IMG/VR virus record: IMGVR_UViG_3300033062_002592
Span: 1-64,000 of that record
From: a virus
Taxonomy: Duplodnaviria; Caudoviricetes
Direction: 5' to 3' (one strand)
DNA: 64,000 bases
Below are positions 2,319 through 19,214 of the stretch, one piece after another. The notes beneath the pieces were generated by a model. The model was not told the DNA's origin and did not search any database. It was given only the letters and a program-made list of their open reading frames with translations. Made by a program: the position numbers and the translations under genes. The stretch's first letter is position 1. Each line of letters opens with the position of its first letter.

Positions 2319-2552
2319 TCATTGTATCACCTCATTTCCAATCAATTTCCCTTTTCTCGGTTTACTTCGTTTCACCACGTAAACAGTGTTGCGGCACCTA
2401 GGACTTTCATAACCTCCACGGGCCTGAGTACATGGAAAACATTCTGTGCAAATCCCTTTGACATTATGTGGATGGAAATGACATCTATTGTCCTGTTCAG
2501 ATAAACAGGTGAAATGTCGTCCACATTTTCGGCAAGTTAAAACCGTTTTCAT
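2319..2552 (-). CDS. Cys-rich small protein with conserved C-terminal tag (KPRKGKLIGNEVIQ)
   Basis: CxxC-x3-F-x-C...CxxC..C pattern; tag shared with 18 other ORFs; ATGA overlap with the upstream ORF. Confidence 0.8.
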   Translation of the reverse strand: MKTVLTCRKCGRHFTCLSEQDNRCHFHPHNVKGICTECFPCTQARGGYESPRCRNTVYVVKRSKPRKGKLIGNEVIQ

Positions 2553-2785
2553 TGGTAAACTTCGTCTCCTATCAATTTCCCTTTCCTAGGCTTACTTTCA
2601 GGTTTCTTAACATAGGATATGTTGCATTGTATGCCCACATAAAGCCTTGCAGTTGCTTTACATGCCATGCACAATTGGCAGTAGCTCTTAATGTCATGGG
2701 AACAATAATTGCATCCTCCACTATTTTCAGACAGACAAACATAGCTTCGCCCACATTCTATGCAGGTGAAAATGGTTTTAACCAT
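2549..2785 (-). CDS. Cys-rich small protein with C-terminal tag (KPRKGKLIGDEVYQ)
   Basis: Paralog of 2319-2552 (KT.xTCxxCGRxx.CLSE); carries the tag. Confidence 0.8.
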   Translation of the reverse strand: MVKTIFTCIECGRSYVCLSENSGGCNYCSHDIKSYCQLCMACKATARLYVGIQCNISYVKKPESKPRKGKLIGDEVYQ

Positions 2786-2955
2786 TTTTCATCTTTCACC
2801 TTTCAAGCTTTTCCTCATTTCATTTATGATTGGTGCAGGCAGCTTGATTCCATCATGAAATTCTCCATCAGCGCCGGCCCACCATTGAACCATTTCCCAT
2901 GTGAAATCCACGAATTCTTCTTCCAGCTCTAGCTCAAGCTCTGGCTCAGTTGGTT

Positions 2956-3165
2956 TCATGTCAAACACCTGTCAAATTCTAGGATTAGCCATTCTCCGGG
3001 ATACTTCGGGTTTTCAATGAAAATCTTCAAGATTTCACCTTCATCAAGTTCTTCGACCATCGTATTGACAGTGACCTCATCATATCCGAATAGTTTCGCA
3101 ATATGCTGAGGAGCTTTCAGCGATGCTTTACCTTTGAAGCCGTCCTTCAATTTGAATCCTTTCAT
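2956..3165 (-). CDS. Hypothetical protein
   Basis: ORF coupled to 3162-3428; GGAGG SD-like site. Confidence 0.55.
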   Translation of the reverse strand: MKGFKLKDGFKGKASLKAPQHIAKLFGYDEVTVNTMVEELDEGEILKIFIENPKYPGEWLILEFDRCLT

Positions 3166-3428
3166 ATTGCTTCCTCCCTTCTCAATGCGAATGTTCGGAA
3201 GACTCGCGTGTTTATCAATGTGCCGTTCATTATCATTCCGCCGTAGCTTTTGTCGTAAAATTCTTCATGTTTACACCACTGAGCCTCATGCTTCATTTTC
3301 CACACGAGTCCACAGTCGTTGCACCTCCAAGCATATTTGACAATTTCCTTCTTTTCATAGCGTGAGCCATCAGCAGTCGGCACACTGATGATGCACTTGA
3401 TTTTTTCCCTCATGGTTACGCTGTTCAC
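3162..3428 (-). CDS. Small Zn-binding protein
   Basis: CNDC...C.H motif; promoter at 3456-3472. Confidence 0.6.
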   Translation of the reverse strand: MNSVTMREKIKCIISVPTADGSRYEKKEIVKYAWRCNDCGLVWKMKHEAQWCKHEEFYDKSYGGMIMNGTLINTRVFRTFALRREEAI

Positions 3429-3630
3429 GTTCTCACATCGTGTTCATGATGTTATTCGGAATATATAAAGCTAGTGCTGATTATAGGATATGCTGTGGCA
3501 CTTCGGGCATGGAACATTATCTGCCAGCATATAAGAGTGGCACACGCTGCATGGAAAAGTTTTCTTCTCAAACCTTTTGAAGAAGCGGAGTAAACTTTGA
3601 CAAATCACTGAAAGTCGCCTCAAAAAAAGA

Positions 3631-4116
3631 TTATGGGGTGGTGGAAACTGTGAACACCAGTTCAGAGTCCCAATTCATGTTATCCATGTCGCCTATAGTC
3701 ACCACAAAGCTAATCGGTATCTCTTGAGTCGTGTTCCAGATTGCATAGTCTGTGTATAACCACTGCGCGCCGTTGAATTTCATTTCCAGATTAAGCCAGC
3801 TCACAGGCAAAATCGTGTATCCCCACCTCATATACACGTTGAGGTTGTAATTGCTTTTCTGCCTTAAAGTATATGTGAATGTGGTTACGCTCTGAGGCAT
3901 CAATCCTGCAAAATTAAAGTCCGCAACTTCCGTCCCATTCTCTGTGTACAATCCAAATCTCACATCAGGCAGCCTTCCCAAGCCAATTATGAAATGCGTT
4001 GGATAACTCTGTGTGCGCAACAGCGCCGCATATCCAATCAGCAACACAGCCGCGATTCCAATCACTGCAACAGCAGTCCCAATCTCAATTTTCCTTCTTC
4101 GATTCATGTTCATCAC
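3631..4116 (-). CDS. Membrane-anchored/secreted beta-rich protein
   Basis: Basic N-terminus plus hydrophobic helix (IGTAVAVIGIAAVLLIGYAALL), beta-strand-rich remainder; own promoter at 4134-4154. Confidence 0.65.
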   Translation of the reverse strand: MMNMNRRRKIEIGTAVAVIGIAAVLLIGYAALLRTQSYPTHFIIGLGRLPDVRFGLYTENGTEVADFNFAGLMPQSVTTFTYTLRQKSNYNLNVYMRWGYTILPVSWLNLEMKFNGAQWLYTDYAIWNTTQEIPISFVVTIGDMDNMNWDSELVFTVSTTP

Positions 4117-4176
4117 TGATTACATCAACGAAATCGGAAAATATAAATCTATCTGTTGGAAAATAGAAAAAAGGGC

Positions 4177-4815
4177 TCAGTTTACAGGCTGAGCCACTGT
4201 GGGTGGAACAAGTTCTTTCAGGACATACGAGAATGTTGTGCGTCTGCCGTTGGGATGAGGAATTTCCTCAACTTTCTTGGCTCTTGCTAGTTCTCTGAAC
4301 ACGGCTCTTACGATGTCGGACTGCGCGGGTCCACAGATGCTCAAAGCATCTATGATGTCACGGCAAGTAAATTCTGCGTTCTTTGGTTCTCTCTTAGCAT
4401 ACATCTCCTGCAACAGTGGCAGCAATCTTTCGCGGATCATTCCTGCTGTGTGGCTCGTCAAATGCGTCACCGTGTCCGGGTTGACTGTGTCCTGATGATA
4501 GTCTCTCATGTAGTACCGCTTCTCATAAGCAGTCTGCTCAGCCTCGGGCTTCTCCACAATCTTCGCTCTCTTCCCAAATTCTATCAGTTGAGGTCTTTCT
4601 TTCACTTCTGGTGCTGTTGTTGGAGTAATCTTTGCTGTTTCTGTTTTGACTTTCTTGGTTTTAACTGGCTTCGCTGTTTTCAACTCTGCGGCAAGCTTCT
4701 CGCTCCTAGCTTTCATGTCAAGCGGCTTCTCTGTGACTGCGGCTACTTCTGCGCTAACTCGTTCCAATATATCGCTCGCGTTTTCGGTTTTTTCTTTCAT
4801 ACTTATTTCCCTCAA
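4177..4815 (-). CDS. Protein with C-terminal winged-helix-like domain
   Basis: FTCRDIIDAL...VRAVFRELARAKKVEE...YVL wHTH pattern; Lys/Thr-rich linker; promoter at 4832-4851. Confidence 0.6.
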   Translation of the reverse strand: MREISMKEKTENASDILERVSAEVAAVTEKPLDMKARSEKLAAELKTAKPVKTKKVKTETAKITPTTAPEVKERPQLIEFGKRAKIVEKPEAEQTAYEKRYYMRDYHQDTVNPDTVTHLTSHTAGMIRERLLPLLQEMYAKREPKNAEFTCRDIIDALSICGPAQSDIVRAVFRELARAKKVEEIPHPNGRRTTFSYVLKELVPPTVAQPVN

Positions 4816-4855
4816 GCTATTTACAATTACTTCGGAGTATTTAAATGTTTCGGGC

Positions 4856-5092
4856 TTAATAGGTGACCCACCGGAGAGAACTTATCAGAACCGTAACACT
4901 TATCAACATTAGAATTCCACCCATGATAAGGAAAAATGGAGCCATGCTGATTTCCCATACAGTAAGTTTTCCTAACGATTCCAATGCTGTATTGGCAATA
5001 GGTAGAAACCAATAGAAAAAGAGAATCCACCATACGATGATGTATAATCCCGATAAAATGGCTGAAGCCAGATTTTGAGGAACGATTCTCAT
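4856..5092 (-). CDS. Small two-helix membrane protein
   Basis: Two hydrophobic segments; GGTGA SD-like site upstream. Confidence 0.55.
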   Translation of the reverse strand: MRIVPQNLASAILSGLYIIVWWILFFYWFLPIANTALESLGKLTVWEISMAPFFLIMGGILMLISVTVLISSLRWVTY

Positions 5093-5098
5093 CCTAAA

Positions 5099-5836: not shown

Positions 5837-5897
5837 TTTTAAGTTGCTAACTGCAAAGGACAATATAAATGTTTCTGTTTAAAAAGGAGATAAGAGA

Positions 5898-5993
5898 GGC
5901 GGGCACCGCTTACAAAAGCCGCCAGAAGCATGACAAACTGGCTATGCTTGAAGCATTGGTGCCCGCCGCACATCTTTTGTGCTAACGATGTGC
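5898..5993 (-). ncRNA. Candidate structured small RNA
   Basis: Nested inverted repeats GGCGGGCACC/GGTGCCCGCC (5898-5907/5958-5967), GCTT/AAGC and AAGCAT/ATGCTT, plus hairpin GCACATC/GATGTGC. Own promoter at 6011-6030 and a downstream T-run. Confidence 0.5.
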
Positions 5994-6146
5994 AAAATTA
6001 AAATAGAAAAAGGAGAATATAAACGTTTCTATTGCTCTCGGTTCACTAATGTATTGACCGCAACGTGCTTTGGGCATTTCGTGCATTGGATGTAATCTTT
6101 GTTCGCACAGTTTTCACAGAGGAACTTACTGAGTTTCACCAACAGA

Positions 6147-6332
6147 TTAGAGGTGCTCATGTCTCATTCCAGCCTGCTCTTTGAGAATCTTTGGAATGTC
6201 TTTCAGCAGTACGGACTTTCGAAGCGGATGCTTCCTCACTTTCTCAAATCCGAATGTCTGTTGCACATCCGTGCTTCTCTGTATGTACTCTGGAACCCAG
6301 ACTTTCCCTTTAACCTTTGATTCTTTCGTCAT
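6147..6332 (-). CDS. Hypothetical small protein
   Basis: ORF after promoter 6360-6380. Confidence 0.5.
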   Translation of the reverse strand: MTKESKVKGKVWVPEYIQRSTDVQQTFGFEKVRKHPLRKSVLLKDIPKILKEQAGMRHEHL

Positions 6333-6973: not shown

Positions 6974-7356
6974 AATCCGTCAGAAGCTTTGCCTCTCTCC
7001 TTTTTTTGTTTTTGTTTCTCAGGTCTAGGACCCGATGGAAGTTCGTGATTTCGATGCCGTTTAATCCAATTACAATTAGCACAAAGAACCTGATACCCAT
7101 CAGGGTTCTCCAAAATATGCTTATACATGGTATAATGATTACCATGTTTCTTTACATCTTGAATACCTCCCCCCTTTATATGGTCAATTTGCAAGGCTCT
7201 CTCATCAGAGAAACCACATATTGCGCATTTACCTCCCAGTTTAGTAATAGCCTTCATCCTCAATCCAGAAACCATTCTCTTAAAGGCTTGGTTCCCATGT
7301 ATTCGGAAGTATTCTCTCATATAGGTATTACGAGCTTCCTTATTCAAACCAATCAC
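6955..7356 (-). CDS. HNH endonuclease (free-standing, homing-endonuclease-like)
   Basis: CAICG...LQIDHI...VLCANCN HNH/Zn signature; antisense to its neighbours. Confidence 0.85.
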   Translation of the reverse strand: MIGLNKEARNTYMREYFRIHGNQAFKRMVSGLRMKAITKLGGKCAICGFSDERALQIDHIKGGGIQDVKKHGNHYTMYKHILENPDGYQVLCANCNWIKRHRNHELPSGPRPEKQKQKKERGKASDGFYSVKR

Positions 7357-7459
7357 CTTAATATAAGTTATATAACCTACACCTATATAAACCTTCTGGT
7401 TTATCTCCTCATAGAGAAACGTTTATTAAATCCTATAATTATATAATCTGTAACGTGAG

Positions 7460-7852
7460 ATGTTCGATGTGACCGACCTTAAAGATAAAGAGGTAATCGT
7501 GGATAAAAAAGGCAGGCATTTCCACTTTGTAGGCCTTGAAGAAACGGAGCTTGAAGCCATGAAACTCGTAGAAGAAGTGCAGGATGCGGGATTCATAGCC
7601 GCCATCTTCCAGCGGGAAGACAACAAATTCTTCGAAGTTTTCTCCAAGTTCACTGATGCCGAAGAATGTATATACTTCTGGGATCGCCACTACTGCGATG
7701 TTTGCCCACCAGAAACAAAGAGCAAATGCTCCGCCAAAACCTGTAAAATACAAATGAAAAAGGAAGACATTTTGTGGAAAGAAGAAAGGGGTTTCGTAAC
7801 GTTAATCCGCCATGAGTTGAAAAAGCTCCATGAACCTGGCATAGGTGGTTGA
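7460..7852 (+). CDS. Hypothetical protein
   Basis: First ORF after promoter 7415-7433; CxxC..C..C motif near the C-terminus. Confidence 0.6.
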   Translation: MFDVTDLKDKEVIVDKKGRHFHFVGLEETELEAMKLVEEVQDAGFIAAIFQREDNKFFEVFSKFTDAEECIYFWDRHYCDVCPPETKSKCSAKTCKIQMKKEDILWKEERGFVTLIRHELKKLHEPGIGG

Positions 7853-8112
7853 CAACTATGGAAAAATGTCCCATTTGTGAAGCTCCGCTTGAAACATTAA
7901 CATGGAGGGCATCATATACATCATTCGGTTTGCCTGCTCAGCCCAATCCCATGGTTTTCTTTGAATGCCATAATCCATCACATCCGCTTCATAATCATCA
8001 AAGGTTTCAATTCATCACTGTAAATGGACAAAACTATGTTTTTCAAGGTGGTTGGACACCTATTTTCCAGCGTAATAAAGGCATTTTCATTGGTAAAAGG
8101 GTGATACAATGA
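7849..8112 (+). CDS. Zn-ribbon small protein with C-terminal tag (RNKGIFIGKRVIQ)
   Basis: CPIC...C.N..H, aromatic hairpin, tag. Confidence 0.8.
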   Translation: MTTMEKCPICEAPLETLTWRASYTSFGLPAQPNPMVFFECHNPSHPLHNHQRFQFITVNGQNYVFQGGWTPIFQRNKGIFIGKRVIQ

Positions 8113-8381
8113 TAAAATGTCCACTCTGTGGCGGCGAGGCTTCACCATATCATGATCCTCCTACTGAAGGTTTGCCTTTTGGAGAATCTGTGCGGATATA
8201 TTACGGCTGCCAAAAATGCCACAACAAAGAGCCTTCCAATAGTTTTTACTTTCTCCACCTTGATAACGGAAAAATCTATTTTTGGAACTATACAGACAAA
8301 AATCACCATTGGAAATGGTATCCTCTCTCAAGTTTACCTAAAAGAAAAGGTCAATTAATTGGTGGAAGGGTTCTCCAATGA
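8109..8381 (+). CDS. Zn-ribbon small protein with C-terminal tag (KRKGQLIGGRVLQ)
   Basis: CPLC...CQKC, tag, ATGA coupling. Confidence 0.8.
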   Translation: MIKCPLCGGEASPYHDPPTEGLPFGESVRIYYGCQKCHNKEPSNSFYFLHLDNGKIYFWNYTDKNHHWKWYPLSSLPKRKGQLIGGRVLQ

Positions 8382-8620
8382 TTAACGTTGATGGTTTCTG
8401 CAAAAACTGTGGCAGATATCTATTTGGAGATTGTGAATGGTGTTCCACCTGTCATCAACCTATAAATGAAACTTCCGTTTACACAGTTTCTTCCAACGAA
8501 GAAAATAACATGGTTTATGACCTACCATTTTCAGACCGTTTGAAATACTTTCAGAAAAAATGCCTGCAGAAGCCCAGAAAAAAAGGTCATTTCATCGGTC
8601 CACGTGTGTACCAAATATGA
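8378..8620 (+). CDS. Zn-ribbon small protein with C-terminal tag (KPRKKGHFIGPRVYQI)
   Basis: CKNC...CSTC, tag, ATGA coupling. Confidence 0.8.
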   Translation: MINVDGFCKNCGRYLFGDCEWCSTCHQPINETSVYTVSSNEENNMVYDLPFSDRLKYFQKKCLQKPRKKGHFIGPRVYQI

Positions 8621-8744
8621 TGCGAATGTTTATATACTCCGTTCGTCATTGTCATACTGCGTGAGAATATGTGTGTACTAACCAACTGCATATCTCGAAC
8701 CGAGAAATGCAAAAAATACGTGGTATGCCCAAGAGCTTCCGAAT

Positions 8745-9023
8745 TTGTTGAAGATTCGGAGTTGTAAACCTATGGGCCGCAGAAAAAGTAAAAGCCTCTT
8801 GAAAGAAGGCTTCAAAAGACCCAGCAAAAAATTCTGGGTTAACACAGGTTTCGGCACAGGCCATTACATGTATCGTTCCACCCTAACTCTCAACGATGGC
8901 AGCACAGCACGGCTCTGCGAATCAAAAGATGGCATTGAGCAGTGGGAACATCCGGTGAAAACTTTGACACTTGACAAGTTCGGGCTCCGCAGAAATGAAT
9001 ATGGAAGGATTGTTCCAAAATGA
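8745..9023 (+). CDS. Basic hypothetical protein (likely start about 8772)
   Basis: ORF after promoter 8622-8641, coupled to 9020. Confidence 0.5.
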   Translation: MLKIRSCKPMGRRKSKSLLKEGFKRPSKKFWVNTGFGTGHYMYRSTLTLNDGSTARLCESKDGIEQWEHPVKTLTLDKFGLRRNEYGRIVPK

Positions 9024-9232
9024 GTAAACCAAAAAATTGGTCCAAAAAACTGTATGAAACTGTCGAGGATATCTATTCCGAGTGCAATATTTCTTGGAGT
9101 AGATTGGAGAGGTTAATTAATATGGCTCTTAAAGAAGGTCGTCAAGAAGTCCTAGATGATCCGAGAGCATTTGATTTGGTTTCACGGGACGAATGTCTAG
9201 GAGAACCCATGCGGGACGAAAGTCGTGATTAA
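9020..9232 (+). CDS. Hypothetical protein
   Basis: ATGA-coupled ORF. Confidence 0.55.
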   Translation: MSKPKNWSKKLYETVEDIYSECNISWSRLERLINMALKEGRQEVLDDPRAFDLVSRDECLGEPMRDESRD

Positions 9233-9492
9233 CATGAAATGCCCGTTTTGTCACGAGGAATTTGATGGTTACGAAATATACGAACCAAGAAACTTTAACC
9301 ATACAAATTTGCCTGTTCAAAAAACCTACACCCATTTCAATCACTCCTGTGAAAAATTTCATGGTGAATGCGTTGTCACCTTGTCAGGCAACCTTTACAC
9401 ATACAACAATAGAGAGTGGATATGTGTCTATAAAAGGGGTCCCAAAAAAACATCGCAAAGGCAAATTAATCGGAGCAGAGGTGTACCAATAA
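9225..9492 (+). pseudogene. Frameshifted tagged Zn-ribbon gene (A7 run at 9444-9450)
   Basis: The CPFC...C..H domain reads in the frame of 9225, but the tag PKKHRKGKLIGAEVYQ* is in the +1 frame. Removing one A of the A7 run restores the standard domain-plus-tag gene with TAATG coupling. Confidence 0.7.
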
Positions 9493-9788
9493 TGTCCGAA
9501 CTCATGCGATGCCCATTTTGTGGTGCAGAAATGGAACCAGACTTAAACCACTCAGGTGGGTGGTTAAGGGAAGATACTTTACCTGAAAATTTTATAGCTG
9601 ACCGAGTGCTAAGATGCACAAATAGAGGTCCCTGTGGTAAGCCTATTCTTCTTATTTCAGGCGTTTGGTACAAATGGGTGTATCACAACGGTGGTGATAT
9701 GTATTGGGAAGCTTTCGCTCCCATAAATGCTAAGCCTCGCAAGATTTCATCCAACTTCATCGGTGGAAAACAGGTGTTTCAAATATGA
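9492..9788 (+). CDS. Zn-ribbon small protein with C-terminal tag variant (KPRKISSNFIGGKQVFQI)
   Basis: ATG at 9492 overlapping TAA; CPFC...C.N..PC; aromatic hairpin; tag. Confidence 0.75.
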   Translation: MSELMRCPFCGAEMEPDLNHSGGWLREDTLPENFIADRVLRCTNRGPCGKPILLISGVWYKWVYHNGGDMYWEAFAPINAKPRKISSNFIGGKQVFQI

Positions 9789-10084
9789 CCAAGAAATGTC
9801 CACGGTGCGGAACAGAATCTCCAACTGAATATGCTGGACAAATTCCTTACTCAAGTACCACCATTACTGGTGGTTTACCGAGTCGAGATTCATGGAGGAA
9901 CTCTACAGGTCTCAGATGTCCGCGGTGTCAAACTGCTTCTAGCAGAGGAAATGGTTACTTTATGTTTCTTGAAGATGATTCAACTTACTATTTAAACTGT
10001 GATGGTGATTATGAATGGCATCTTTTCAAGCCGGTAAAGCCACGTAAAGGTATTTTAATTGGCAGAGAGGTGTTTCAACCATGA
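9785..10084 (+). CDS. Zn-ribbon small protein with C-terminal tag (KPRKGILIGREVFQP)
   Basis: CPRC...CPRC; tag. Confidence 0.8.
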   Translation: MTKKCPRCGTESPTEYAGQIPYSSTTITGGLPSRDSWRNSTGLRCPRCQTASSRGNGYFMFLEDDSTYYLNCDGDYEWHLFKPVKPRKGILIGREVFQP

Positions 10085-10374
10085 AATGTTTCATTTGCCA
10101 TCAAGATATTAGATGTGAGGGACGCCTTAGCTACGGAGGAGACAGACAGGGTCTTCCCATAAATACAGACTTTGAAGGATGGCTATCGTATAGATGTGGC
10201 TCATCTAACCATGAAATAGTACAGCTCCATGCTGTTTCACCCGATGGAGATATTTACATCTATGACGTTTCTGCTGGACATGACCACAGCTCTCAATGGA
10301 GATGGAGAAAACTTCAACAAAAAACGCGCAAAAAGGGCACTTTTGTGGGTGGCTCACAGGTGATGCAATTTTGA
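10081..10374 (+). CDS. Zn-ribbon small protein with C-terminal tag (RKKGTFVGGSQVMQF)
   Basis: CFIC...C...H; tag. Confidence 0.8.
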   Translation: MKCFICHQDIRCEGRLSYGGDRQGLPINTDFEGWLSYRCGSSNHEIVQLHAVSPDGDIYIYDVSAGHDHSSQWRWRKLQQKTRKKGTFVGGSQVMQF

Positions 10375-10658
10375 CAGATTACATCAGATACCTTTGCCCA
10401 ATCTGCGGTCGTCCTTTAGAAGAAAGAGCTCCTTGGAGCAATACTTTGGGTCTTTCAGAAAAGAAGGTTAGGGGGCGCAGAGCCTTTCATTGCCCACGAG
10501 GTGTAAACTACAAACACCCATATTCTTGTTTCCTTCTGCTTAGAGATGGTAGTTTTTACAAATTTAGTGGCAAAAGTTGGGTTCCTTCAGTTCTGAAAAC
10601 CAAAAAAGTTTCACGCAAAGGCAAAATTATCGGTGCGTGCCCTGTTTCACAATCCTAA
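10371..10658 (+). CDS. Zn-ribbon small protein with C-terminal tag (RKGKIIGACPVSQS)
   Basis: TTG start overlapping the upstream TGA; CPIC...C...H; tag. Confidence 0.75.
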   Translation: MTDYIRYLCPICGRPLEERAPWSNTLGLSEKKVRGRRAFHCPRGVNYKHPYSCFLLLRDGSFYKFSGKSWVPSVLKTKKVSRKGKIIGACPVSQS

Positions 10659-11973: not shown

Positions 11974-12153
11974 ATGAAAGTTTACCACCGAGTCTGCGGC
12001 GATCCTGGATGTAGGATGCAGTTCCTATGTTATGGTGAATGTAATCATCGTCCACGACTTAAAGACAAAACCTTCTGCTATTGTCCGATTCATTGTAAAA
12101 ACCACACTTTTATTATAGAACCACAAGCGAGGTGTAAATCCCGCTTTGGTTAG
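11974..12153 (+). CDS. Cys-rich small protein (59 aa, not in ORF track), untagged
   Basis: MKVYHRVCGDPGCRMQFLCYGEC...CYCPIHC...RCKSRFG; paralog of 12433-12648; promoter at 11921-11941. Confidence 0.7.
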   Translation: MKVYHRVCGDPGCRMQFLCYGECNHRPRLKDKTFCYCPIHCKNHTFIIEPQARCKSRFG

Positions 12154-12432: not shown

Positions 12433-12648
12433 TTGAGTAAAGCTGAAAAGTGCAAAGTTTTTCACCGCGTCTGCGCCAACTCTTTTTGTGAAATGCAGTT
12501 CATCTGTGATGGCTCATGCGAATTGCCCATGAATCTATATAATAAAAATGCCTGTGATTGTATCCTTCATTGTAAAACTCATGATTATATTGGAGAATTC
12601 AAAAGTATGTACTGTCGAGCCCGCTTTCCAGAGAGGTTCACTCAATGA
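12433..12648 (+). CDS. Cys-rich small protein, untagged
   Basis: KVFHRVC..C.MQF.C.G.C...C.C..HC; paralog of 11974-12153. Confidence 0.7.
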   Translation: MSKAEKCKVFHRVCANSFCEMQFICDGSCELPMNLYNKNACDCILHCKTHDYIGEFKSMYCRARFPERFTQ

Positions 12649-13142: not shown

Positions 13143-13361
13143 ATGCCACGAGCAATAGCCATAAAAATTGGTAGATTCGGCGGAGAAGCCCGCGAGTTTA
13201 TCCTCAACGAAAACGCCACCGTCAATGACGCATTGGCGATGTCGGGTGAGAAGCTGAAGAAAGGAGAGACTCTCTCTATCTTCGGTGACACCGTGAGGGG
13301 AACCCACGAGCTTTCTGAGGGTGACGTAATCGTCATTCAGCCGAGTACCACCGGCGCATAA
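13143..13361 (+). CDS. Ubiquitin-like beta-grasp protein (SAMP/MoaD/ThiS-like) ending TTGA
   Basis: 72 aa; ATVNDAL helix start and LSEGDVIVIQPSTTGA tail matching the L.dGD.v.i.Ppv.GG beta-grasp end; first gene of an operon with E2-like, JAB and E1 genes. Confidence 0.8.
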   Translation: MPRAIAIKIGRFGGEAREFILNENATVNDALAMSGEKLKKGETLSIFGDTVRGTHELSEGDVIVIQPSTTGA

Positions 13362-13448: not shown

Positions 13449-14690
13449 ATGAAAGTAAAATTTGGAGATTTCGAGGAAGTCGAAAATGCCGACTATGTAA
13501 AGCAAAAGCTAACCGACTTTTTTAAGCCGACAAAATCCGACAAATTCAAGGAAATATTCATAGCATATCCACATCAATGCTTCTCCGAAGAATATGCACC
13601 GGCAGAGCCAGACAAAGAACTCCTAGAAATGTATATATACAGCATTCCAAAAGATGTAAAGGCTGATGCCGGCAGAACCGAAATACTGCGAATGAATGGT
13701 GTTAATTTAGCACCAGTGGGTGGTCAGCGTGATTGTCTGAAAGTGCATGAAGTTCCAAAAACGTATGATACCATTGAAGACGAAACCGGAAACGTGCTTG
13801 CCATTTTGAAAAACAATCACATTTGGGTCACAAACGACATTTGCCATGGAATGGTCTCTGGAAGTGATGGAGTTGACCAGATGTTCAACACATACATGGG
13901 TTTCGTGGGCGAAAACTTTTTGAATCCGCCAACACCAGAAGAACTTGAGGAAAGAGTTGCACAGTCCCTCAAGCTCATCATCGAGCGGAGCTTCAATGAA
14001 ACAACCAAAAAAATCGAATCCGAAGTACACTCACTCTCAACTGAGGTTGCATCAACCCAAACAAGATATACGGATTTAATTGCACAACTTTCCAGAAAAA
14101 GTGAAATACTTGAGTTGGCAAAGCAACGAAATATGCCGGATCCCAAAGTCCTGCTCAATAAAGTGAAAAAGTTTCCGTGGGTTGACCATCTCAATTTGAA
14201 ATCGGGGATGATTTCTGTGGAAACAAAGCCGATTTCAATTGGTCCATTTCTGTATGGATCTTGGAAGATTTCTTTGGCAAAAGAAGTTCCCATAATGAAA
14301 CATGAAGTGCAAGGCAAAACATTGCACCCATACGAATGGGATGAACACCATGGAAACAAATACTGTTTAGGGGGCTTCGCCCATGACTATACCCAAGCAT
14401 ATAACAGAGGAGACATAGTTGAAGCCTTCAGCATCTGCAAATTGGAAATTACCTCGTACAGCATAGACACAAAGATGACTCCAATTGAAAAGTTCTTCAC
14501 GGCAATCATGGGTAAGAAAGCTCTGGATAAAATCTTCGATGAAGTGTCAAAGGAAAACAAATTCAAAGAATCAGATGGTGTGCAAATCCTATCAATCAAC
14601 GGCCATGAAGTAACATATGTGGGATACAAACGTCTAGCAGACGGCACTAATGCTGTCAACCGAGAAAGGGCCGTGATAAACTATGAGTAA
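13449..14690 (+). CDS. Putative E2-like (UBC-fold) protein with central coiled coil
   Basis: HPY...G..YCLG (about 14325-14372) resembles the HP(N)...G.iCL E2 active-site motif; coiled-coil region; lies between the Ubl and JAB genes. Confidence 0.55.
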   Translation: MKVKFGDFEEVENADYVKQKLTDFFKPTKSDKFKEIFIAYPHQCFSEEYAPAEPDKELLEMYIYSIPKDVKADAGRTEILRMNGVNLAPVGGQRDCLKVHEVPKTYDTIEDETGNVLAILKNNHIWVTNDICHGMVSGSDGVDQMFNTYMGFVGENFLNPPTPEELEERVAQSLKLIIERSFNETTKKIESEVHSLSTEVASTQTRYTDLIAQLSRKSEILELAKQRNMPDPKVLLNKVKKFPWVDHLNLKSGMISVETKPISIGPFLYGSWKISLAKEVPIMKHEVQGKTLHPYEWDEHHGNKYCLGGFAHDYTQAYNRGDIVEAFSICKLEITSYSIDTKMTPIEKFFTAIMGKKALDKIFDEVSKENKFKESDGVQILSINGHEVTYVGYKRLADGTNAVNRERAVINYE

Positions 14691-15822
14691 TTCCATTCAC
14701 ATTCCCTTTGCAGTTTTCCAAAAAGTGAAAACCTACGCAGAGCTGGCGCACGAAGATGATGCTGAAATTGGCGGCTATGTTCAAATGACAGAGCTTCCTG
14801 ATGTCGGGTTAATGGTCAAGGACTTTTTGCTTCCAACTCAAGAAGTTTCAGGGGGAAGCATGAAAGTCGTTCCCGGCGGAGAATGGATGAAAACTCTGTC
14901 AACAGAAGACCTAAAAGAAATCAGGGGCTGGTGGCATTCTCATGGAAAAATGGGCACGTTTCACAGTGGCACCGATGATACAACATTGGACGACAAGTTT
15001 GATGGTGAAACAGCAGGTTCGCCGCCTTATGCAGTTTCCATAGTTTTCTCTCTACCAGATGAAATCAAAGCCAGACTTTCGTATTTCAAGCCAATCAAAA
15101 CCAAAATAATGGAAGTTCCAGTAGAAATCATCTATGAAAAGTGCCCTCACTGTGGCGGAGATATGGAAACTAAGCTACCTAAAGCAGACTTTGAGAAATA
15201 CTGTGAAGAGGTCAAAACTCGGGTTTTCAAAGAAATATACGGATATTGGCAGAATGATAAGCTAAAACGTCTCGGAACTAAGAAAAAGGAAACCACGACA
15301 AACCCTCGCAAAGGGGCTGCGGCGGATACGGACCAAAATTCTACCCAGGATTCGGAAACGGACCAGAATTCTTCGACTACTGACTCTGGTGTTCAAAGCC
15401 TAAGAACTTTTTTTCAAGAAGATTTCGAGGAAGCTGAATGGGAAATAGCCGAAAAAATCATAGATGATATCACCGGCATGAGCATGGCCGAACTAATTGA
15501 AAACGGTCAGTACGACCCAGAGTTATACGAAGACATTGAGGAAAAATATCAAGCCGAACTCAAGAAAGCCAAAGTGAAAGCCTTTATAGTTAAAGGCCGC
15601 TGCCCCCATCAATTCCTTAACGACAAGTTCCGCCCAATCTGCCATTTTCATGGCAAAAACTTTGACTGTAAAAACTGTAAGCACCTGCCGAAGGCTCCCG
15701 CCTTCAAGCGCAAGATGTCTGTGAGAGAGGCCTGCGAACAAACCACTTTAGCCGTCCAAAAAGAGAAAGACTTATCTAATCCTTCTTCATCTAAATCTAT
15801 GAAGAAGATTGTCATTGACTGA
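14683..15822 (+). CDS. JAB/MPN+ metallo-isopeptidase with Zn-binding and acidic extensions
   Basis: EIGG...QE...GWWHSHGKMGTFHSGTDD fits the E...HxH-x7-S-x2-D motif; CPHC and a C-terminal C/H cluster. Confidence 0.9.
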   Translation: MSNSIHIPFAVFQKVKTYAELAHEDDAEIGGYVQMTELPDVGLMVKDFLLPTQEVSGGSMKVVPGGEWMKTLSTEDLKEIRGWWHSHGKMGTFHSGTDDTTLDDKFDGETAGSPPYAVSIVFSLPDEIKARLSYFKPIKTKIMEVPVEIIYEKCPHCGGDMETKLPKADFEKYCEEVKTRVFKEIYGYWQNDKLKRLGTKKKETTTNPRKGAAADTDQNSTQDSETDQNSSTTDSGVQSLRTFFQEDFEEAEWEIAEKIIDDITGMSMAELIENGQYDPELYEDIEEKYQAELKKAKVKAFIVKGRCPHQFLNDKFRPICHFHGKNFDCKNCKHLPKAPAFKRKMSVREACEQTTLAVQKEKDLSNPSSSKSMKKIVID

Positions 15823-16020: not shown

Positions 16021-16021
16021 A

Positions 16022-16696
16022 TTGGCTGAATTCATTCGGCAACAAAGTTTGATAGACCAAGCGAAGCTTTCCGAGCTTCGCATAGCTATCATCGGTGCGG
16101 GAGCAATAGGCTCTTATACAGCCCTGACATTGACAAAAATGGGCTGTACGCACCTAACAGTTTGGGACAAAGACAACGTAGAGTTGCACAATATTTCCAA
16201 TCAGCTTTTCAACCGTGAATCGTTGGGAACCCCCAAAGTTGTGGCAGTTGAGCAGGAATGCAAGAGATACGCTCCAACAGGTGTTGATGTGGAAATTTAC
16301 AATGAATTCTATGAAGGTCAAACCCTAGACAAACATGATGTCGTGATAGCCTTGACAGATAATATTGAAGGGCGAGCCAAAGCGTTTGAAGCCGCATTTA
16401 AATCGCAGAAAGCCATGCTGTTCATAGATGGTCGAATGGGGGCTGAAACTCTGCGAACTTTCGTTTTCAATCCGAAGGATCCCGATGCTTCAAAGGAATA
16501 TTATGAAGATTACATCGAGGATGTTCAAAACGAAGAACTGCCATGCACTGCTAGGAGCATCATATACAATGTGCTGATGGCGGCTTCGCTGATTTCATCC
16601 TACGTAAAACGGTTCGTTCAAGGCGAGCCTGCGCCATTTCAAATCATCTACAATTTCAAAGATTACTCCCAATGCAAATCATTGGTGGTGACATAA
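16022..16696 (+). CDS. ThiF/MoeB/E1-family adenylyltransferase
   Basis: RQ...IIGAGAIGS, D.D.VE.HN..NQ, PKV, TDN..GR, IDGRMG; ELPCT is a candidate catalytic Cys; no CxxC Zn pairs. Confidence 0.92.
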   Translation: MAEFIRQQSLIDQAKLSELRIAIIGAGAIGSYTALTLTKMGCTHLTVWDKDNVELHNISNQLFNRESLGTPKVVAVEQECKRYAPTGVDVEIYNEFYEGQTLDKHDVVIALTDNIEGRAKAFEAAFKSQKAMLFIDGRMGAETLRTFVFNPKDPDASKEYYEDYIEDVQNEELPCTARSIIYNVLMAASLISSYVKRFVQGEPAPFQIIYNFKDYSQCKSLVVT

Positions 16697-17055
16697 TGCC
16701 ACATAATGCCAAAATTTGTGAACACTGTGGTTCTTTAGAATGGCAAGAAGAGTGGTCTGAAACTAGAAGTTCCAGGAAAACGTGGATGCCAAACGAAGAT
16801 GGAGAATATGAAGAAGAATGGGATGACGATGATTATGGTGGTTCTGATGGTGAACTTACTGGTACATTTTGTTCAGAGTGCGGCTCATCTCATCTCCTAG
16901 ATTTAGAAGCCTTGACAGAAGATGAAATTTTGGAACTTGATAACATAGCATCAGATGAGCGCGTTGCGGCTGCTAGAGCCATGTTAAATGGCTCATGGGA
17001 TGATGAGCCTGAAAGAAAAGGCAAATTAATCGGGAAGAGGGTGCGTCAAACTTGA
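16696..17055 (+). CDS. Acidic Zn-ribbon protein with C-terminal tag (PERKGKLIGKRVRQT)
   Basis: ATG overlaps the E1 TAA; CEHC...CSEC; tag. Confidence 0.8.
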   Translation: MPHNAKICEHCGSLEWQEEWSETRSSRKTWMPNEDGEYEEEWDDDDYGGSDGELTGTFCSECGSSHLLDLEALTEDEILELDNIASDERVAAARAMLNGSWDDEPERKGKLIGKRVRQT

Positions 17056-17333
17056 GTTTCTCGCGGAGCAATCTGAAAGTCGGAGACATCGTGCTGATAA
17101 ACCGTGGTAGTGCTTGTAGCCGACTTAATAATCCAAGTGGAAAAATCAAAGTTAAAATCCTAATGTTTCACGGTGATGCTAATTGGGGCGGAGGAAGTTA
17201 TGACTTCAAAGCCGATGCAACGATTTCCGGTGGTGAAGATTGGTATTACTATAACTTTTCGGAAATCCTCACAATTCCCAATCGGAAAAGAAAAACAAAA
17301 GGTAAACGTGTAGGAGAGTATTGGGCACAATGA
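17052..17333 (+). CDS. SH3/KOW-like small protein with tag variant (KTKGKRVGEYWAQ)
   Basis: NLKVGDIVLI...IKVKI...DF.A...YYNFSEI; paralog of 17330 and 18306. Confidence 0.75.
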   Translation: MSFSRSNLKVGDIVLINRGSACSRLNNPSGKIKVKILMFHGDANWGGGSYDFKADATISGGEDWYYYNFSEILTIPNRKRKTKGKRVGEYWAQ

Positions 17334-17593
17334 TTTTTAACCGTGGAAATTTGAAAAAAGGAAACATCGTACTGATTCGCTTTGGAAGGGGTCACAGCAG
17401 AAGCATGAATCCAAAAGGAAAAATCAAGGTAAGAATCACAAATTTTGTGAATGATGGCATGTATGATTTCAGGGCAAACGCCACAATGTCTAATGGTTTA
17501 TCTGACTATTACTACAACTTTTCTGAAATCCTCAAAATTTGCGAGGAACAAAAACATAAAGGAAAACGCGTAGGAGAGTTCTGGGCACAATGA
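17330..17593 (+). CDS. SH3/KOW-like small protein with tag variant (KHKGKRVGEFWAQ)
   Basis: Tandem paralog of 17052; ATGA coupling. Confidence 0.75.
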   Translation: MIFNRGNLKKGNIVLIRFGRGHSRSMNPKGKIKVRITNFVNDGMYDFRANATMSNGLSDYYYNFSEILKICEEQKHKGKRVGEFWAQ

Positions 17594-17925
17594 GCAAACC
17601 ATATCCCGATTTAGATGAGGAAACCCGAGCAAGAGTAATCAACCGCAGATTTGAATCCCAGCAAGTGCTAACAGCGGAAGAAACTTTGCGAATTATCGAA
17701 CACTTGAAAGCCGTGCAAAAGCTCGTGCCATTTGACAAACTTGCCGAGCTGTTCAAGATTCCATCATGGCGGCAGCACCAAATCTATTCAGCCCTGAAAA
17801 GGCGAAGCGATGTAAAGTTGCACTATAAGAAAGGTGAATGGTTTGCTGAATTTCACGAGGCTGCGCCTGCGTTGCTGACAACTCCTTTCAACACTGTAAA
17901 GGCGGAGGCTTCGCCAAATGAATAA
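17590..17925 (+). CDS. Untagged hypothetical protein, possible wHTH
   Basis: VPFDKLAELFKI...IYSALKR...GEWF pattern; translationally coupled. Confidence 0.6.
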   Translation: MSKPYPDLDEETRARVINRRFESQQVLTAEETLRIIEHLKAVQKLVPFDKLAELFKIPSWRQHQIYSALKRRSDVKLHYKKGEWFAEFHEAAPALLTTPFNTVKAEASPNE

Positions 17926-18115
17926 GCATAAATGCGGAAATTGCGGAAAGTATTTCGTTTGTTTAGCAGTCAGTTGCCCAAGTATTTCGGATTATCAAAA
18001 TAACGAAAAATCGACCTGTAATTGTGAACCTTGTGGCGGCGGCTGCAAAACAAGACCTTTCATTTTACCAAAACGAAAGAAAGGCACATTTATTGGTGAG
18101 AGGGTTTACCAATGA
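17918..18115 (+). CDS. Cys-rich small protein with C-terminal tag (KRKKGTFIGERVYQ)
   Basis: HKCGNCGKYFVCL...C.C..C...C.TRP; tag. Confidence 0.8.
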   Translation: MNKHKCGNCGKYFVCLAVSCPSISDYQNNEKSTCNCEPCGGGCKTRPFILPKRKKGTFIGERVYQ

Positions 18116-18309
18116 TAATTCATAAATGCGGAAATTGTGGTCAAAGATTCATCTGCTTAAATGGTGACTGTGTTGGAGAAGATTCAACCTGTTGGTGTTT
18201 GAACTGCACTAAAAAACCTGGAAGTCATAGAACACACTGTAGGACTAGACCCATTGAGGGTAAACCTCGTAAAAAAGGAACATTCATAGGGGAGCGTGTC
18301 TATCAATGA
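18112..18309 (+). CDS. Cys-rich small protein with C-terminal tag (KPRKKGTFIGERVYQ)
   Basis: Paralog of 17918; tag. Confidence 0.8.
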   Translation: MIIHKCGNCGQRFICLNGDCVGEDSTCWCLNCTKKPGSHRTHCRTRPIEGKPRKKGTFIGERVYQ

Positions 18310-18554
18310 CTGGTGAAAGACCGCCAAATCTGAAAGTAGGAGACTACGTTTGGATTAGAAATGGTAATGACTGTGGCAGAAGTCTCTTACCCATTAGACC
18401 CATAAAGGTTATGATAATAAGATTTGACTTTGGTAACTTCCAAGCTCATACTGATTTAGACCTAGTTACAGATTGGTGGTACGGCTACCATGAAATCTTC
18501 GAGCCCAAACCAAGAAAGAAAGGCAACTTCGTTGGGGAGAGGGTGATACAATGA
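18306..18554 (+). CDS. SH3/KOW-like small protein with C-terminal tag (KPRKKGNFVGERVIQ)
   Basis: NLKVGDYVWI...IKV.I; tag. Confidence 0.8.
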   Translation: MTGERPPNLKVGDYVWIRNGNDCGRSLLPIRPIKVMIIRFDFGNFQAHTDLDLVTDWWYGYHEIFEPKPRKKGNFVGERVIQ

Positions 18555-18745
18555 GTAGTTCTACCTCCTCTGTAACTAATCGACCACATTGGTCGATATG
18601 GTCAGGAACGACTCCAGAACCAGTATATTTCTGGATAGATGAAAATAGGATTGCCCATATATCTGTTTCCCCAGATGAAGAAAAGAAAGCTCCGCCGCCA
18701 AAAAGAGTTAAAGGCAAATATGTTGGAGAGAGGGTCATCCAATGA
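18551..18745 (+). CDS. Small protein with C-terminal tag (KRVKGKYVGERVIQ)
   Basis: ATGA-coupled; tag. Confidence 0.75.
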   Translation: MSSSTSSVTNRPHWSIWSGTTPEPVYFWIDENRIAHISVSPDEEKKAPPPKRVKGKYVGERVIQ

Positions 18746-18951
18746 TAATCACAAAAACCTGTGTAAAATGCGGCAGAAAATTTCAATGTGAGCCTGCTGA
18801 GAACTGTGGTTCTCGGTATACAGAAACTTGCGAATGTGGAATATGTTTAGGACATAAAGGTTCCTGTGAATACCTACTAAAGAAAAAACTGGTAGAGTTG
18901 AACCCGAGAAAAAAAGGAGAAATAATTGGAGAAAGGGTGGTACAACTATGA
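18742..18951 (+). CDS. Cys-rich small protein with C-terminal tag (PRKKGEIIGERVVQL)
   Basis: CVKCGRKFQC...C.C..C...C; tag. Confidence 0.8.
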   Translation: MIITKTCVKCGRKFQCEPAENCGSRYTETCECGICLGHKGSCEYLLKKKLVELNPRKKGEIIGERVVQL

Positions 18952-19214
18952 ATAATCCATGTGGAGCTGATCCAACACCAGCTCATCCTCAAAACTATTG
19001 TCAAGATGATAGGACTTGTTGTTATCACTGCGAAAAAATTAGAGAATGCCTCCCAACATGGGGAGGACCTTTGCTGGTTCATTACTGTTCAAAGCATAAC
19101 CTTTCAAGATTGTGTTCCGCTGTAGCTGAGAAAATTCGAGAAGATGGATTCCTAATTAAAATCTTTCCACCTAGAAAAAAGGGTACCTTCGTAGGAGCTA
19201 GAGTTTATCAATGA
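18948..19214 (+). CDS. Cys-rich small protein with C-terminal tag (PPRKKGTFVGARVYQ)
   Basis: C...C..CC..C...C...C...C; tag. Confidence 0.8.
   Translation: MNNPCGADPTPAHPQNYCQDDRTCCYHCEKIRECLPTWGGPLLVHYCSKHNLSRLCSAVAEKIREDGFLIKIFPPRKKGTFVGARVYQ

Follow-up and report, generated by a model that had tools for sequence, protein, structure and literature searches.

Unrelated small proteins with a common C-terminal tail, encoded around a ubiquitin-like module in a lineage of head-tailed viruses

Tailed genes and their heads

The window, a 64,000-nucleotide stretch of a 106,319-bp viral genome, encodes 19 small ORFs whose products finish in the same kind of short peptide, in all 19 cases 0 or 1 residues before the stop codon. 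In the ORF listing and a six-frame regular-expression scan, 18 of the tails strictly matched G-x-Φ-[IV]-G-x2-3-[VWA]-x-Q, and a 19th (9489-9788, KPRKISSNFIGGKQVFQI) fits more loosely; all the ORFs described in the earlier note were present, in four clusters of two, three, five and nine. The six-frame scan of the whole genome showed no further tails, and the chance expectation over 100 shuffles was a mean of 0.03 matches.

The first cluster is on the minus strand and holds two members of head family A, an 8-Cys Zn finger, at 2319..2552 (tail KPRKGKLIGNEVIQ) and 2549..2785 (KPRKGKLIGDEVYQ); the remaining tailed genes are on the plus strand. In the second cluster, a gene with a Zn-ribbon head (7849..8112, QRNKGIFIGKRVIQ) is followed by a member of family B, likewise a Zn ribbon (8109..8381, PKRKGQLIGGRVLQ), and by a third tailed ORF (8378..8620, KPRKKGHFIGPRVYQI). 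The third cluster opens with a frameshifted gene (9225..9492): its head, a Zn ribbon, uses the frame of 9225, and the tail KKHRKGKLIGAEVYQ (9460-9489) is in the +1 frame, within an ORF at 9262-9492. There is an A7 run at the head/tail junction, where one A fewer would fuse both frames, and the frameshifted state recurs in a second assembly, L001. Three genes of family B come next, at 9489..9788 (the looser tail, of the long type; orthologue in L002 at 5866-6150), 9785..10084 (KPRKGILIGREVFQP) and 10081..10374 (long type, TRKKGTFVGGSQVMQF), and then an ORF of uncertain start (10296..10658, VSRKGKIIGACPVSQS). The fourth cluster begins with an acidic double Zn ribbon (16672..17055, PERKGKLIGKRVRQT), a gene located directly 3' of the E1 gene in five viruses. 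It continues with two members of family C, which is Cys-free and SH3-like, at 17052..17333 (variant tail KTKGKRVGEYWAQ) and 17321..17593 (KHKGKRVGEFWAQ; likely start, the ATG at 17330), and two of family A, at 17918..18115 (KRKKGTFIGERVYQ) and 18112..18309 (PRKKGTFIGERVYQ). The last four are of family C (18306..18554, PRKKGNFVGERVIQ), a singleton head (18551..18745, PKRVKGKYVGERVIQ), family A (18742..18951, PRKKGEIIGERVVQL) and the CC-rich family D (18948..19214, PRKKGTFVGARVYQ). As had been claimed, the identical RKKGTFIGERVYQ tails of the genes at 17918 and 18112 differ synonymously at 9 of 13 codons. In an AF2 model, in which confidence is low, the tail is predicted to lack secondary structure.

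By BLAST clustering the heads form five multi-member families plus singletons, so that the previous count of at least four N-terminal families was conservative. The hhalign probability between head families was at most 11%, and the number of Cys per head goes from 0 to 9 across families. In addition, family A includes untailed members in L003 and L012, which carry the alternative end ...C[KR][ST]RFP.G.P. The tail is a modular element, since one tail is found on heads without detectable relationship and a single family occurs both with and without it. Two more plus-strand ORFs were noted by eye as candidate untailed relatives of family A, one with similar Cys spacing (11974..12153) and one ending in ...CRARFPERFTQ (12433..12648); both are absent from the matches listed in the search that gave the untailed members of L003 and L012. 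The C-terminus of the former, ...CKSRFG, resembles the alternative end of those members.

The ubiquitin-like module and the ATPase

Among the tailed genes, on the plus strand, lie four genes of a ubiquitin-like (Ubl) conjugation module. The Ubl itself (13143..13361, 72 aa) has a weak match to ThiS and the C-terminus STTGA, which is the same in all seven related viruses. The next gene, E2x (13449..14690, 413 aa), belongs to no curated family. Its product comprises a flavodoxin/GATase1-like N-terminal domain with invariant PHQC, D130 and H133, a coiled coil, and a UBC/RWD-like domain with an invariant HPYE...C306-x-GG. It may be called E2-like only by its predicted fold topology (an RWD match with a Z of 7.5, in the middling range) and the HPx...C motif; at the sequence level it gave no match to E2s. 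A JAB/MPN+ metalloprotease (14683..15822) follows, with a complete JAMM motif (E28, H85-S-H87, S95, D98) and a C-terminal C4 zinc finger, and then an E1-like ThiF adenylyltransferase (16022..16696, 224 aa), which matches ThiF at 1.5e-28 and also Cap2 E1 modules at 1e-15. Judged by its sequences, the module looks enzymatically competent, because the JAMM motif of JAB is full, the E1 matches ThiF and E2x contains two Cys centres that are invariant. No ligase of the Dop/PafA type could be detected among the operon genes. The run of tailed genes is closed by a HerA/FtsK-type P-loop ATPase (19211..19996, plus strand).

The tail in related viruses

Seven related viruses encode about 80 tailed small ORFs, with a load of about 10-20 tailed proteins per genome. 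The tail is spread across the whole of this lineage of ~100-kb head-tailed viruses, which are probably archaeal. A common core, [RK]-K-G-K-Φ-I-G-x4/5-Q, is found across viruses, with the core Gly invariant (80/80 tails), and in all of them the tail lies within 0-3 residues of the C-terminus. His takes the place of Gln in 7 of the 80, the Gln is followed by 1-3 further residues in 31, and the tail end (Gln or His) is 5-9 residues past the invariant Gly. Each virus uses one dialect, common to its different head families; some dialects end in P-I-Q or P-C-Q, and a penultimate Tyr is present in a minority of tails in the virus studied here. The tail matches no curated family and literature searches found no description of it, in agreement with the earlier view that it could not be recognised from described families.

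The gene order Ubl, E2x, JAB, E1, tailed genes, ATPase is kept in every relative, most ORFs of the E1-to-ATPase interval are tailed, and tailed genes always flank the Ubl/E2x/JAB/E1 operon. Tails were found in all eight E2x-bearing loci but in none of four comparison loci, three with the ATPase alone and one with JAB and E1 alone (11-21 kb of each of these four genomes covered), with a false-positive rate of about 0.26 regex matches per shuffled 20-kb locus. The suggested co-occurrence with Ubl, E2-like, JAB and E1 genes thus held in every relative examined; the HerA-like ATPase is linked to the tails less closely than suggested, as members of the same ATPase family (35-49% identity) turn up in other viruses, and in an integrated element, that have no tail within 15-21 kb. 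Furthermore, the loci with E2x all come from a single viral clade, and the co-occurrence is confounded by shared ancestry. The tails could lie beside the Ubl operon because of a common position or timing and not a common function, since tailed genes are much of this small-gene region anyway.

Selection on the tail acts at the protein level, as had been proposed. Synonymous sites are saturated (pS 0.55-0.88) while pN/pS is 0.02-0.26 at the core (Φ-I-G plus Q); the tails at operon ends, which have no overlapping downstream start, retain the motif and use CAG besides CAA; and among untailed NTGA-coupled genes only 1 of 43 ends in Gln.

Possible readers of the tail

We tentatively propose, at somewhat less than an even chance, that the tail is a portable recognition peptide coupling small binder proteins to the virus's own Ubl module. 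Other readings have to be weighed against the same evidence. The tail could act in translation, as a nascent peptide at termination or as a by-product of a Shine-Dalgarno-like (SD-like) signal plus stop/start that aids coupling to the next gene. The constant distance to the stop and the NTGA overlaps at most tail ends would agree with this, as would the terminal His of L010, which is CAT-TGA in 5 of 7 cases and gives a TTGA overlap. In this virus an SD-like signal overlies the last five tail codons, with a bias to GAG-AGG-GTG: AGG makes up 9 of 12 Arg codons (13% genome-wide) and GTG 10 of 17 Val codons (15% genome-wide), and Gln is CAA without exception. The condition under which the earlier note would have given up the tag, conservation due only to such DNA signals, is therefore partly relevant to these five codons, but it fails as a general explanation. 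Operon-end tails keep the motif, the 43 untailed genes are equally well coupled without it, the post-Gly part of other dialects does not look SD-like, pN/pS indicates amino-acid constraint at non-SD positions, and a reader as conserved as the ribosome tunnel would not be expected to yield virus-specific dialects; we consider this reading highly improbable. We give equally little credit to a generic nucleic-acid-binding or structural tail, that is, an AT-hook-like arm or a part of one diverged family. The basic patch P-R-K-G-K is loosely like AT-hook cores and many heads are Zn ribbons, but electrostatic binding would not call for anything as specific as an invariant Φ-I-G-x4-Q with virus-specific dialects, the heads show no relationship by BLAST or hhalign and differ widely in Cys content, and the low-confidence AF2 model does not pack the tail on the head.

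Docking to a host hub (clamp, proteasome, unfoldase or polymerase), with the Ubl operon a mere neighbour, seems unlikely to us, although several observations would suit it. Some tailed genes are distant from the operon (those at 7849-10658 and, on the opposite strand, 2319-2785) or, in relatives, downstream of the ATPase; host takeover is a typical role of small early proteins with Zn fingers; and dialects could follow different hosts. However, the archaeal PIP box and the HbYX motif both misfit the tail, in which a penultimate Tyr is the minority case, hubs evolve slowly whereas dialects differ sharply between viruses with E1 about 65% identical, and the four loci without E2x contain no tails. 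The ATPase as reader of a sorting or packaging signal, by which the small proteins would be transported, into the capsid for instance, is very unlikely in our opinion. In favour of it, the protein is of the FtsK/HerA/TrwB-like class, and C-terminal signals are read by T4SS coupling proteins and by EccC; the ATPase gene and the last of the tailed genes are coupled by ATGA, and the tailed run ends at the ATPase in every relative. Against this, the tail-free relatives of the ATPase have already been mentioned, the protein evolves slowly (53-64% identity among long contigs of the lineage) while the tail dialects diverge, and canonical TerL and portal are encoded elsewhere in the genome. A docking motif alone, our own proposal included, leaves the constant extreme C-terminal position unexplained. 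This position, and the invariant Gly, would be accounted for if the tail were a pro-sequence that JAB cuts after I-G, with E1 adenylating the Gly and E2x forming a thioester, so that the small non-β-grasp proteins themselves end up covalently attached to targets. In such a scheme E1, itself well conserved, would recognise the conserved half that ends in I-G, and the fast-evolving JAB the dialect half behind it; the hydrophobic, basic P-side is reminiscent of LRLRGG or Atg8 F-G, and the Ubl itself ends in G-A. There is a precedent in Type II CBASS, to whose Cap2 modules the E1 is similar: Cap2 (E1/E2) activates the C-terminal Gly/Ala of a non-β-grasp cGAS, and Cap3 (JAB) cleaves the peptide bond immediately past it (PMC10097602). 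Nevertheless, the post-Gly x4/5-Q is nearly as conserved as the pre-Gly part, which is not usual for a propeptide that is to be discarded, none of the tailed ORFs has I-G as its very end, E1 would have to take both ...STTGA and ...KΦIG tails, and a bona fide β-grasp Ubl is already in the operon, all of which makes this scheme doubtful, and quite unlikely on balance.

With respect to known systems, CBASS also has E1-, E2- and JAB-type enzymes encoded beside non-β-grasp clients, whose C-terminal residues are conserved only where the enzymes are present (PMC10097602). However, its clients end exactly in Gly/Ala, there is one per operon, and it is a host defence, whereas the viral system has many clients, ends its tails in Gln/His well past the Gly and has a separate β-grasp Ubl. 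In archaeal sampylation (SAMP1-3, UbaA, HvJAMM1), too, a ThiF-type E1 and a JAMM protease accompany a small β-grasp Ubl, and the four components of the viral module are those encoded by bacterial Bil operons (Ubl-E2-JAB-E1); the viral Ubl differs in its invariant G-A instead of G-G, and E2x in its size, its extra N-terminal domain and coiled coil, and its lack of an E2 family by sequence. To our knowledge, no tailed client repertoire accompanies SAMP or Bil. The function of Pup (C-terminal GGQ/GGE), also a small protein, depends on a C-terminal Gln motif; the tails have no GG before the Gln, may carry His or further residues, and have no Dop/PafA-type ligase detected beside them. Ankyrin-PRANC proteins of poxviruses and chloroviruses (with a C-terminal F-box-like element) and SOCS/BC-box proteins share the design of variable heads, one constant C-terminal element and multigene expansion. 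There the constant element plugs into ubiquitin-type ligase machinery, as we would propose by analogy here. Their box is helical and of 40-50 residues, compared with a peptide of roughly 13 that is predicted to be unstructured; the heads here are tiny Zn fingers or SH3-like domains, and the machinery that we presume is encoded by the virus itself and is prokaryotic in type (ThiF E1, JAB, a non-canonical E2-like protein).

Returning to the recognition peptide, the tail consists of a basic patch and G-K-Φ-I-G, then four or five residues that vary with the virus, and a Gln at or next to the C-terminus, and it would couple a repertoire of Zn fingers, Zn ribbons and SH3-like domains to one virus-encoded partner. 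We infer that this partner is most likely the Ubl-conjugation module (Ubl, E2x, JAB and E1) encoded among the tailed genes, and the events after binding are suggested with the same caution. The virus-specific dialects fit co-evolution with a fast-evolving partner, to judge from sequence identity, because E2x and JAB are 30-43% identical between viruses, compared with 59-68% for E1. The variable head of each small protein would bind a different host or viral target, and the constant tail would engage either JAB or E2x, in whose N-terminal domain Cys, His and Asp residues are invariant. On this view the small proteins would serve as adaptors that bring substrates to Ubl conjugation, or would be the substrates that it prefers.

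The tail and the proteins that carry it

A six-frame scan of the window virus recovered the 19 C-terminal tails described in the earlier note, 18 of them strict matches and one looser, all ending 0-1 residues from the stop codon and falling in four clusters. Outside these clusters the motif was not found in the 106 kb, where shuffles yield 0.03. The tail has the core [RK]-K-G-K-Φ-I-G-x4/5-Q, and in this virus it takes the form PRKKGtFIGeRVyQ, with V-Y-Q as the last three residues in only 6 of the 19. One of the 19 ORFs proves to be a frameshifted gene (9225-9492), with a Zn-ribbon head from 9225 and a tail ending at 9489 in a different frame; a shift of 1 nt at an A7 run (about 9445-9451) separates the two. 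Deleting one A from this run gives an intact tailed protein, and the shifted frame continues into 9489-9788 to form a 187-aa ORF with two heads and one tail. The same state is present in L001, a second assembly of the virus with 99.96% identity, and it could represent a real mutation, a fusion or slippage.

The N-terminal heads had been said to belong to at least four different families, a conservative count, since BLAST clustering gave five multi-member groups and 13 singletons. Family A, a finger with 8-9 Cys, has 30 members in six viruses, and the 22 members of family B are Zn ribbons that contain a 'GLP' motif. An acidic double Zn ribbon has five members and directly follows E1 in five viruses; the CC-rich family D has four members. 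The Cys-free, SH3-like family C has five members by BLAST and nine profile hits, eight tailed and one cut at the contig end of L003, a relative. Profile-profile probabilities between families did not exceed 11%, and only CxxC knuckles were matched. Furthermore, two relatives encode untailed members of family A (L003, 2630-2944; L012, 3392-3856) with another conserved C-terminus, ...C[KR][ST]RFP[DNE]G.P, which may be a second tail type. Two window ORFs outside the profile matches listed (11974-12153 and 12433-12648) look by eye like the same untailed subfamily, to judge by how their Cys are spaced and by their RF-type ends. Modelled with AF2 from 25 sequences, family A reached a pLDDT of 56, too low for a fold search; the tail received no helix or other secondary structure, which is weakly consistent with a flexible linear motif.

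Direct searches with the tail were misleading, since the relatives have tails that are too weak in score or that belong to uncalled ORFs. When an alignment of the 18 tailed proteins served as query for a word-index search, nothing but proteins of the window virus came back, and an exhaustive HMMER search of 1.84 billion representatives with a tail profile added one spurious repeat protein (P0009). That the tail is unique to one genome was ruled out by relatives located through the neighbouring genes E2x (relatives with 36-44% identity) and the HerA/FtsK-type ATPase (about 50 relatives, with several contigs near 100 kb in length). By profile and by regex, about 80 tailed small ORFs were found in seven viruses: the window virus, L002, L003, L009, L010, L012 (the same virus as L020) and L014. 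On shuffled 20-kb loci the regex gives 0.26 false hits each. In the fetched loci of the relatives the tails lie on the strand of the Ubl operon, except for one minus-strand tail in L020. Scans of IMG/VR and other collections with E2x, an E2x profile and two degenerate DNA patterns gave nothing real; an E1 profile matched only L020 and a distant JAB+E1 locus that is free of tails. The sole match of a metagenome scan was the already known L004, and a GTDB scan gave none.

When 80 tails were anchored on I-G, the Gly at position +1 was present in all 80, and it lies 5-9 residues from the C-terminal end. It is preceded by I (72) or V (8) at position 0, by L (37), F (20) or I (10) at -1, by K (56) or R (4) at -2, by G (58) at -3, by K (40) at -4 and by R (42) or K (12) at -5; position +2 holds mainly G (37), E (15) or D (10). 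The spacer to the final Q (73) or H (7) measures four residues in 57 tails, five in 21 and three in two, and beyond it stand no residue (49), one (26) or two to three (5). In every virus one dialect is common to all head families: PRKGKLIGGxxIQ in L009, KR[VIF]GKLIG[DEG]YxxQ/H in L010, RKxnFIGGxQVxQ in L012 and L003, and RLKGK[IL]IGxxKxQ[W] in L014. Decayed tails were also observed, in L009 (6565-6822) and L002 (5093-5401), with PRKGKMILTELIQLG and RIGSPIGNLVVQTSRKKL before the stop codon; the tail can thus disappear by mutation while the head persists.

Selection on the peptide and on the DNA

In the window virus, and only there, the last five tail codons are biased towards GAG-AGG-GTG. Among the tail Arg codons 9 of 12 are AGG, compared with 13% in the whole genome, and among the tail Val codons 10 of 17 are GTG, compared with 15%; the Gln codon is always CAA, mostly running into an ATGA overlap. 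This bias shows that the tail also carries, superimposed on it, a Shine-Dalgarno-like signal directed at the next gene. The earlier note had placed the conservation at the protein level and had named a Shine-Dalgarno or stop-start signal as what might explain it instead; such a signal alone fails as the explanation, on four grounds. Of 43 untailed NTGA-coupled genes in this genome, a single one has Gln as its last residue, and at their sixth-from-end position, which was compared with the tail Gly, the six commonest residues do not include Gly. Operon-end tails of the relatives have no overlapping start, yet the motif is complete in them and its Gln is encoded by CAG as well as by CAA. Beyond the Gly, dialects such as G-K-L-I-G-D-Y-P-C-Q do not resemble a Shine-Dalgarno sequence. 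Finally, paralogous tails within each genome have a saturated pS (0.55-0.88) and a pN/pS of 0.02-0.26 at Φ-I-G plus Q, far below 1. It was also confirmed that two identical tails of the window virus differ at 9 of 13 codons. A role of the tail at the level of translation, for which the superimposed bias of the window virus speaks, is on these same observations hardly credible.

Both levels seem to meet in L010, where five of the seven terminal His codons are read as CAT-TGA and produce a TTGA overlap with the TTG start of the next gene. In this virus, whose tails include 7209-7658, 7816-8079 and 7977-8378, the last base looks tuned to the start codon that follows, and both this codon and the protein motif seem to have a say in the last tail residue.

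The Ubl operon, the ATPase and the virus

All relatives arrange these genes as Ubl, E2x, JAB, E1, tailed genes and ATPase, with further tails upstream of Ubl and often also downstream of the ATPase. The Ubl (window 13143-13361; L002 8359-8571; L003 3533-3742; L009 4023-4247; L010 3800-4036; L012 3923-4132; L014 3516-3701) ends in S-T-[TS]-G-A in seven of seven viruses, so that the conserved last residue is Ala and the end is not Gly-Gly. E1 (16022-16696) matches ThiF at 1.5e-28 and Cap2 E1 modules at 1e-15, and JAB (14683-15822) has a complete JAMM motif and a C4 finger at its C-terminus. ThiF/E1 genes are common accessory genes of archaeal viruses (PMC8276007), and the literature also places them in Asgard viruses.

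E2x (413 aa, 13449-14690) matched no curated family, Pfam or PADLOC entry, neither the whole protein nor its C-terminal domain had a sequence match in the PDB, and a BFVD search gave no significant match. Its AF2 model (pLDDT 71) consists of an N-terminal domain, a long coiled coil and a C-terminal domain. The modelled C-terminal domain is UBC/RWD-like (Knl1 RWD, Z 7.5) and contains H293-P-Y-E...C306-x-G-G, invariant in eight viruses and mirroring the HPN...Cys signature of E2 enzymes. From this fold and the HPYE...C motif only, with no sequence match, E2x is likely E2-like. The N-terminal domain (residues 1-160, window 13449-13930) resembles flavodoxin/GATase1 folds in repeated weak matches in PDB and BFVD; identity as a GATase1 was set aside, the match being too weak (Foldseek E 6e-4, TM 0.2-0.4; VIA Z about 7). 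This domain has its own invariants in the eight viruses (P-H-Q-C44, D130 and H133) and may form another catalytic centre, of an E3-like, peptidase or amidase kind.

The earlier note had proposed to test whether the tails co-occur with Ubl/E2/JAB/E1 and HerA-like genes, and the two links fared differently. Tails are present in eight of eight E2x loci, an association confounded by common descent. No tails were found in three loci having only a distant homologue of the ATPase (L015, L016 and L017) or in L021, which has JAB and E1 only, all four comparison loci being short. These tail-free loci weaken the ATPase (19211-19996) as the specific reader of the tail, that is, its presumed protein partner, and are compatible with E2x or JAB in that role. 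In head-tailed viruses of smaller size, members of the ATPase family adjoin genes for portal, Mu-F and PolB; the family occurs also in an integrase-flanked element on a 331-kb contig with cellular metabolic genes (PFOR, H+-PPase). These contexts come from L015, L017 and L016. The small HerA-like ATPase looks like a widespread core gene of these viruses.

The window virus is a novel head-tailed virus, assembled as a single contig of 106,319 bp whose two ends overlap by 141 bp and of which the window is the first 64 kb. It encodes a family-B DNA polymerase, NrdD, a portal protein and a T4-type large terminase; a tRNA search of the genome found none. The top-listed terminase match is a haloarchaeal myovirus (26% identity, 92% coverage), with lower E-values for shorter alignments to a few bacterial phages. 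This match, together with several archaeal-type DUF and HTH families in the relatives, makes an archaeal host probable. The G+C content is 40-43% in 1-22000, which holds the small genes, the tails and the Ubl operon, and 29-38% in 22000-60000, which holds replication and nucleotide metabolism. In addition, a 24-nt unit (TTTGCCTTGCCTTTGCCTAACCAA-like) is repeated three to four times within the terminal overlap (window 40-125 and genome end 106178-106319) and may mark an origin, a packaging site or terminal-redundancy repeats.

What the tail may do

A constant C-terminal element on variable heads, in a paralogous repertoire of about 80 tails, recalls F-box, PRANC and SOCS-box adaptors. Their boxes are, however, helical and of about 40-50 residues, while the tail has about 13 residues, no predicted helix and no Pfam match. 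Type II CBASS encodes E1, E2 and JAB activities together with the client; in the viral operon the E1 is clear and the JAMM motif intact, and E2x is a candidate E2 through its RWD/UBC-like fold and HPYE...C motif. CBASS clients end in Gly or Ala, as does the viral Ubl (G-A), whereas the tails end in Q or H plus 0-3 residues, and the tailed proteins would acquire a Gly/Ala end only after a hypothetical trim. As to the β-grasp body of a modifier, the sequences of the heads suggest Cys-rich Zn fingers or SH3-like domains, the AF2 confidence for family A being too low to assign a fold. In the precursors of Ub, SUMO, Atg8 and QbsE the short propeptide after the processing-site Gly is poorly conserved; in the tails the Gly is invariant, but the x4/5-Q after it is strongly conserved within each virus.

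Several known motifs were considered and rejected. A Pup-type modifier (G-G-Q/E) does not fit, as there is no GG before the Gln and Q-to-H variants occur; a PafA/Dop-type ligase was not matched among the scanned operon proteins. The HbYX proteasome-gate motif, with hydrophobic-Tyr-any at the very end, was discarded given the few V-Y-Q ends and the P-I-Q, P-C-Q or Q-W ends of other dialects, and the archaeal PIP box (Q-x-x-[LIVM]-x-x-[FWY]-[FWYL]) because the Gln is last in the motif, not first, and no aromatic pair follows. Gln-directed chemistry, transglutaminase-like or Pup-like, is unlikely in view of the tails with His or with 1-3 residues beyond the Gln. A specific acceptor Lys is likewise unlikely, no Lys position being invariant, even if one or more Lys lie nearby in 79 of the 80 tails.

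We tentatively favour, at somewhat less than even chances, that the tail plugs these mini-binders into the Ubl/E1/E2-like/JAB machinery. The constant tail would engage the virus-encoded conjugation machinery, and the mini-binders would serve as its adaptors or preferred substrates. A co-evolving, virus-encoded reader is suggested by the selection at the protein level, the dialects without gene conversion, the unrelated-looking heads and the embedding in the Ubl operon, as well as by the fast evolution of E2x and JAB (30-43% identity among relatives) compared with E1 (59-68%). That the tail instead docks on a host protein, a hub of the cell, is unlikely, if still worth serious thought. Less probable again is that the tailed proteins are themselves donors, JAB trimming after the invariant I-G, E1 activating the new C-terminal Gly and E2x transferring the mini-protein. 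By analogy with its type II CBASS precedent (PMC10097602), this would account for the C-terminal position and the invariant Gly, but the residues beyond the Gly are strongly conserved. If it were true, each virus would have about 10-20 different mini-proteins, none with a β-grasp fold, that become covalently attached to host or viral targets, and the 'enzyme-as-ubiquitin' chemistry of CBASS would extend to a whole virus-encoded effector repertoire. Sorting of the tailed proteins by the ATPase has little to recommend it, with a distant homologue of this gene in three tail-free loci, and we give slightly less credence still to a generic basic or structural tail.

The finding is classed here as a viral adaptor/client repertoire with one common C-terminal element, linked to ubiquitin-type machinery; neither a shared C-terminal tail nor a client repertoire turned up in the literature searches. 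If the adaptor or substrate reading is true, the mini-binders, about 20 per genome, would be the first known adaptor/client repertoire of a prokaryote-type ubiquitin-like system, and would mirror, on the offensive side of a virus, the conjugation defences Bil and CBASS of bacteria. The tail would then offer a 13-residue handle for pulling out the machinery, for finding the host targets modified by archaeal viruses, and for examining how E2-like enzymes select substrates without RING or HECT ligases. Should the reader be a host hub instead, the tail would still unite many otherwise unannotatable small viral proteins as one functional class.
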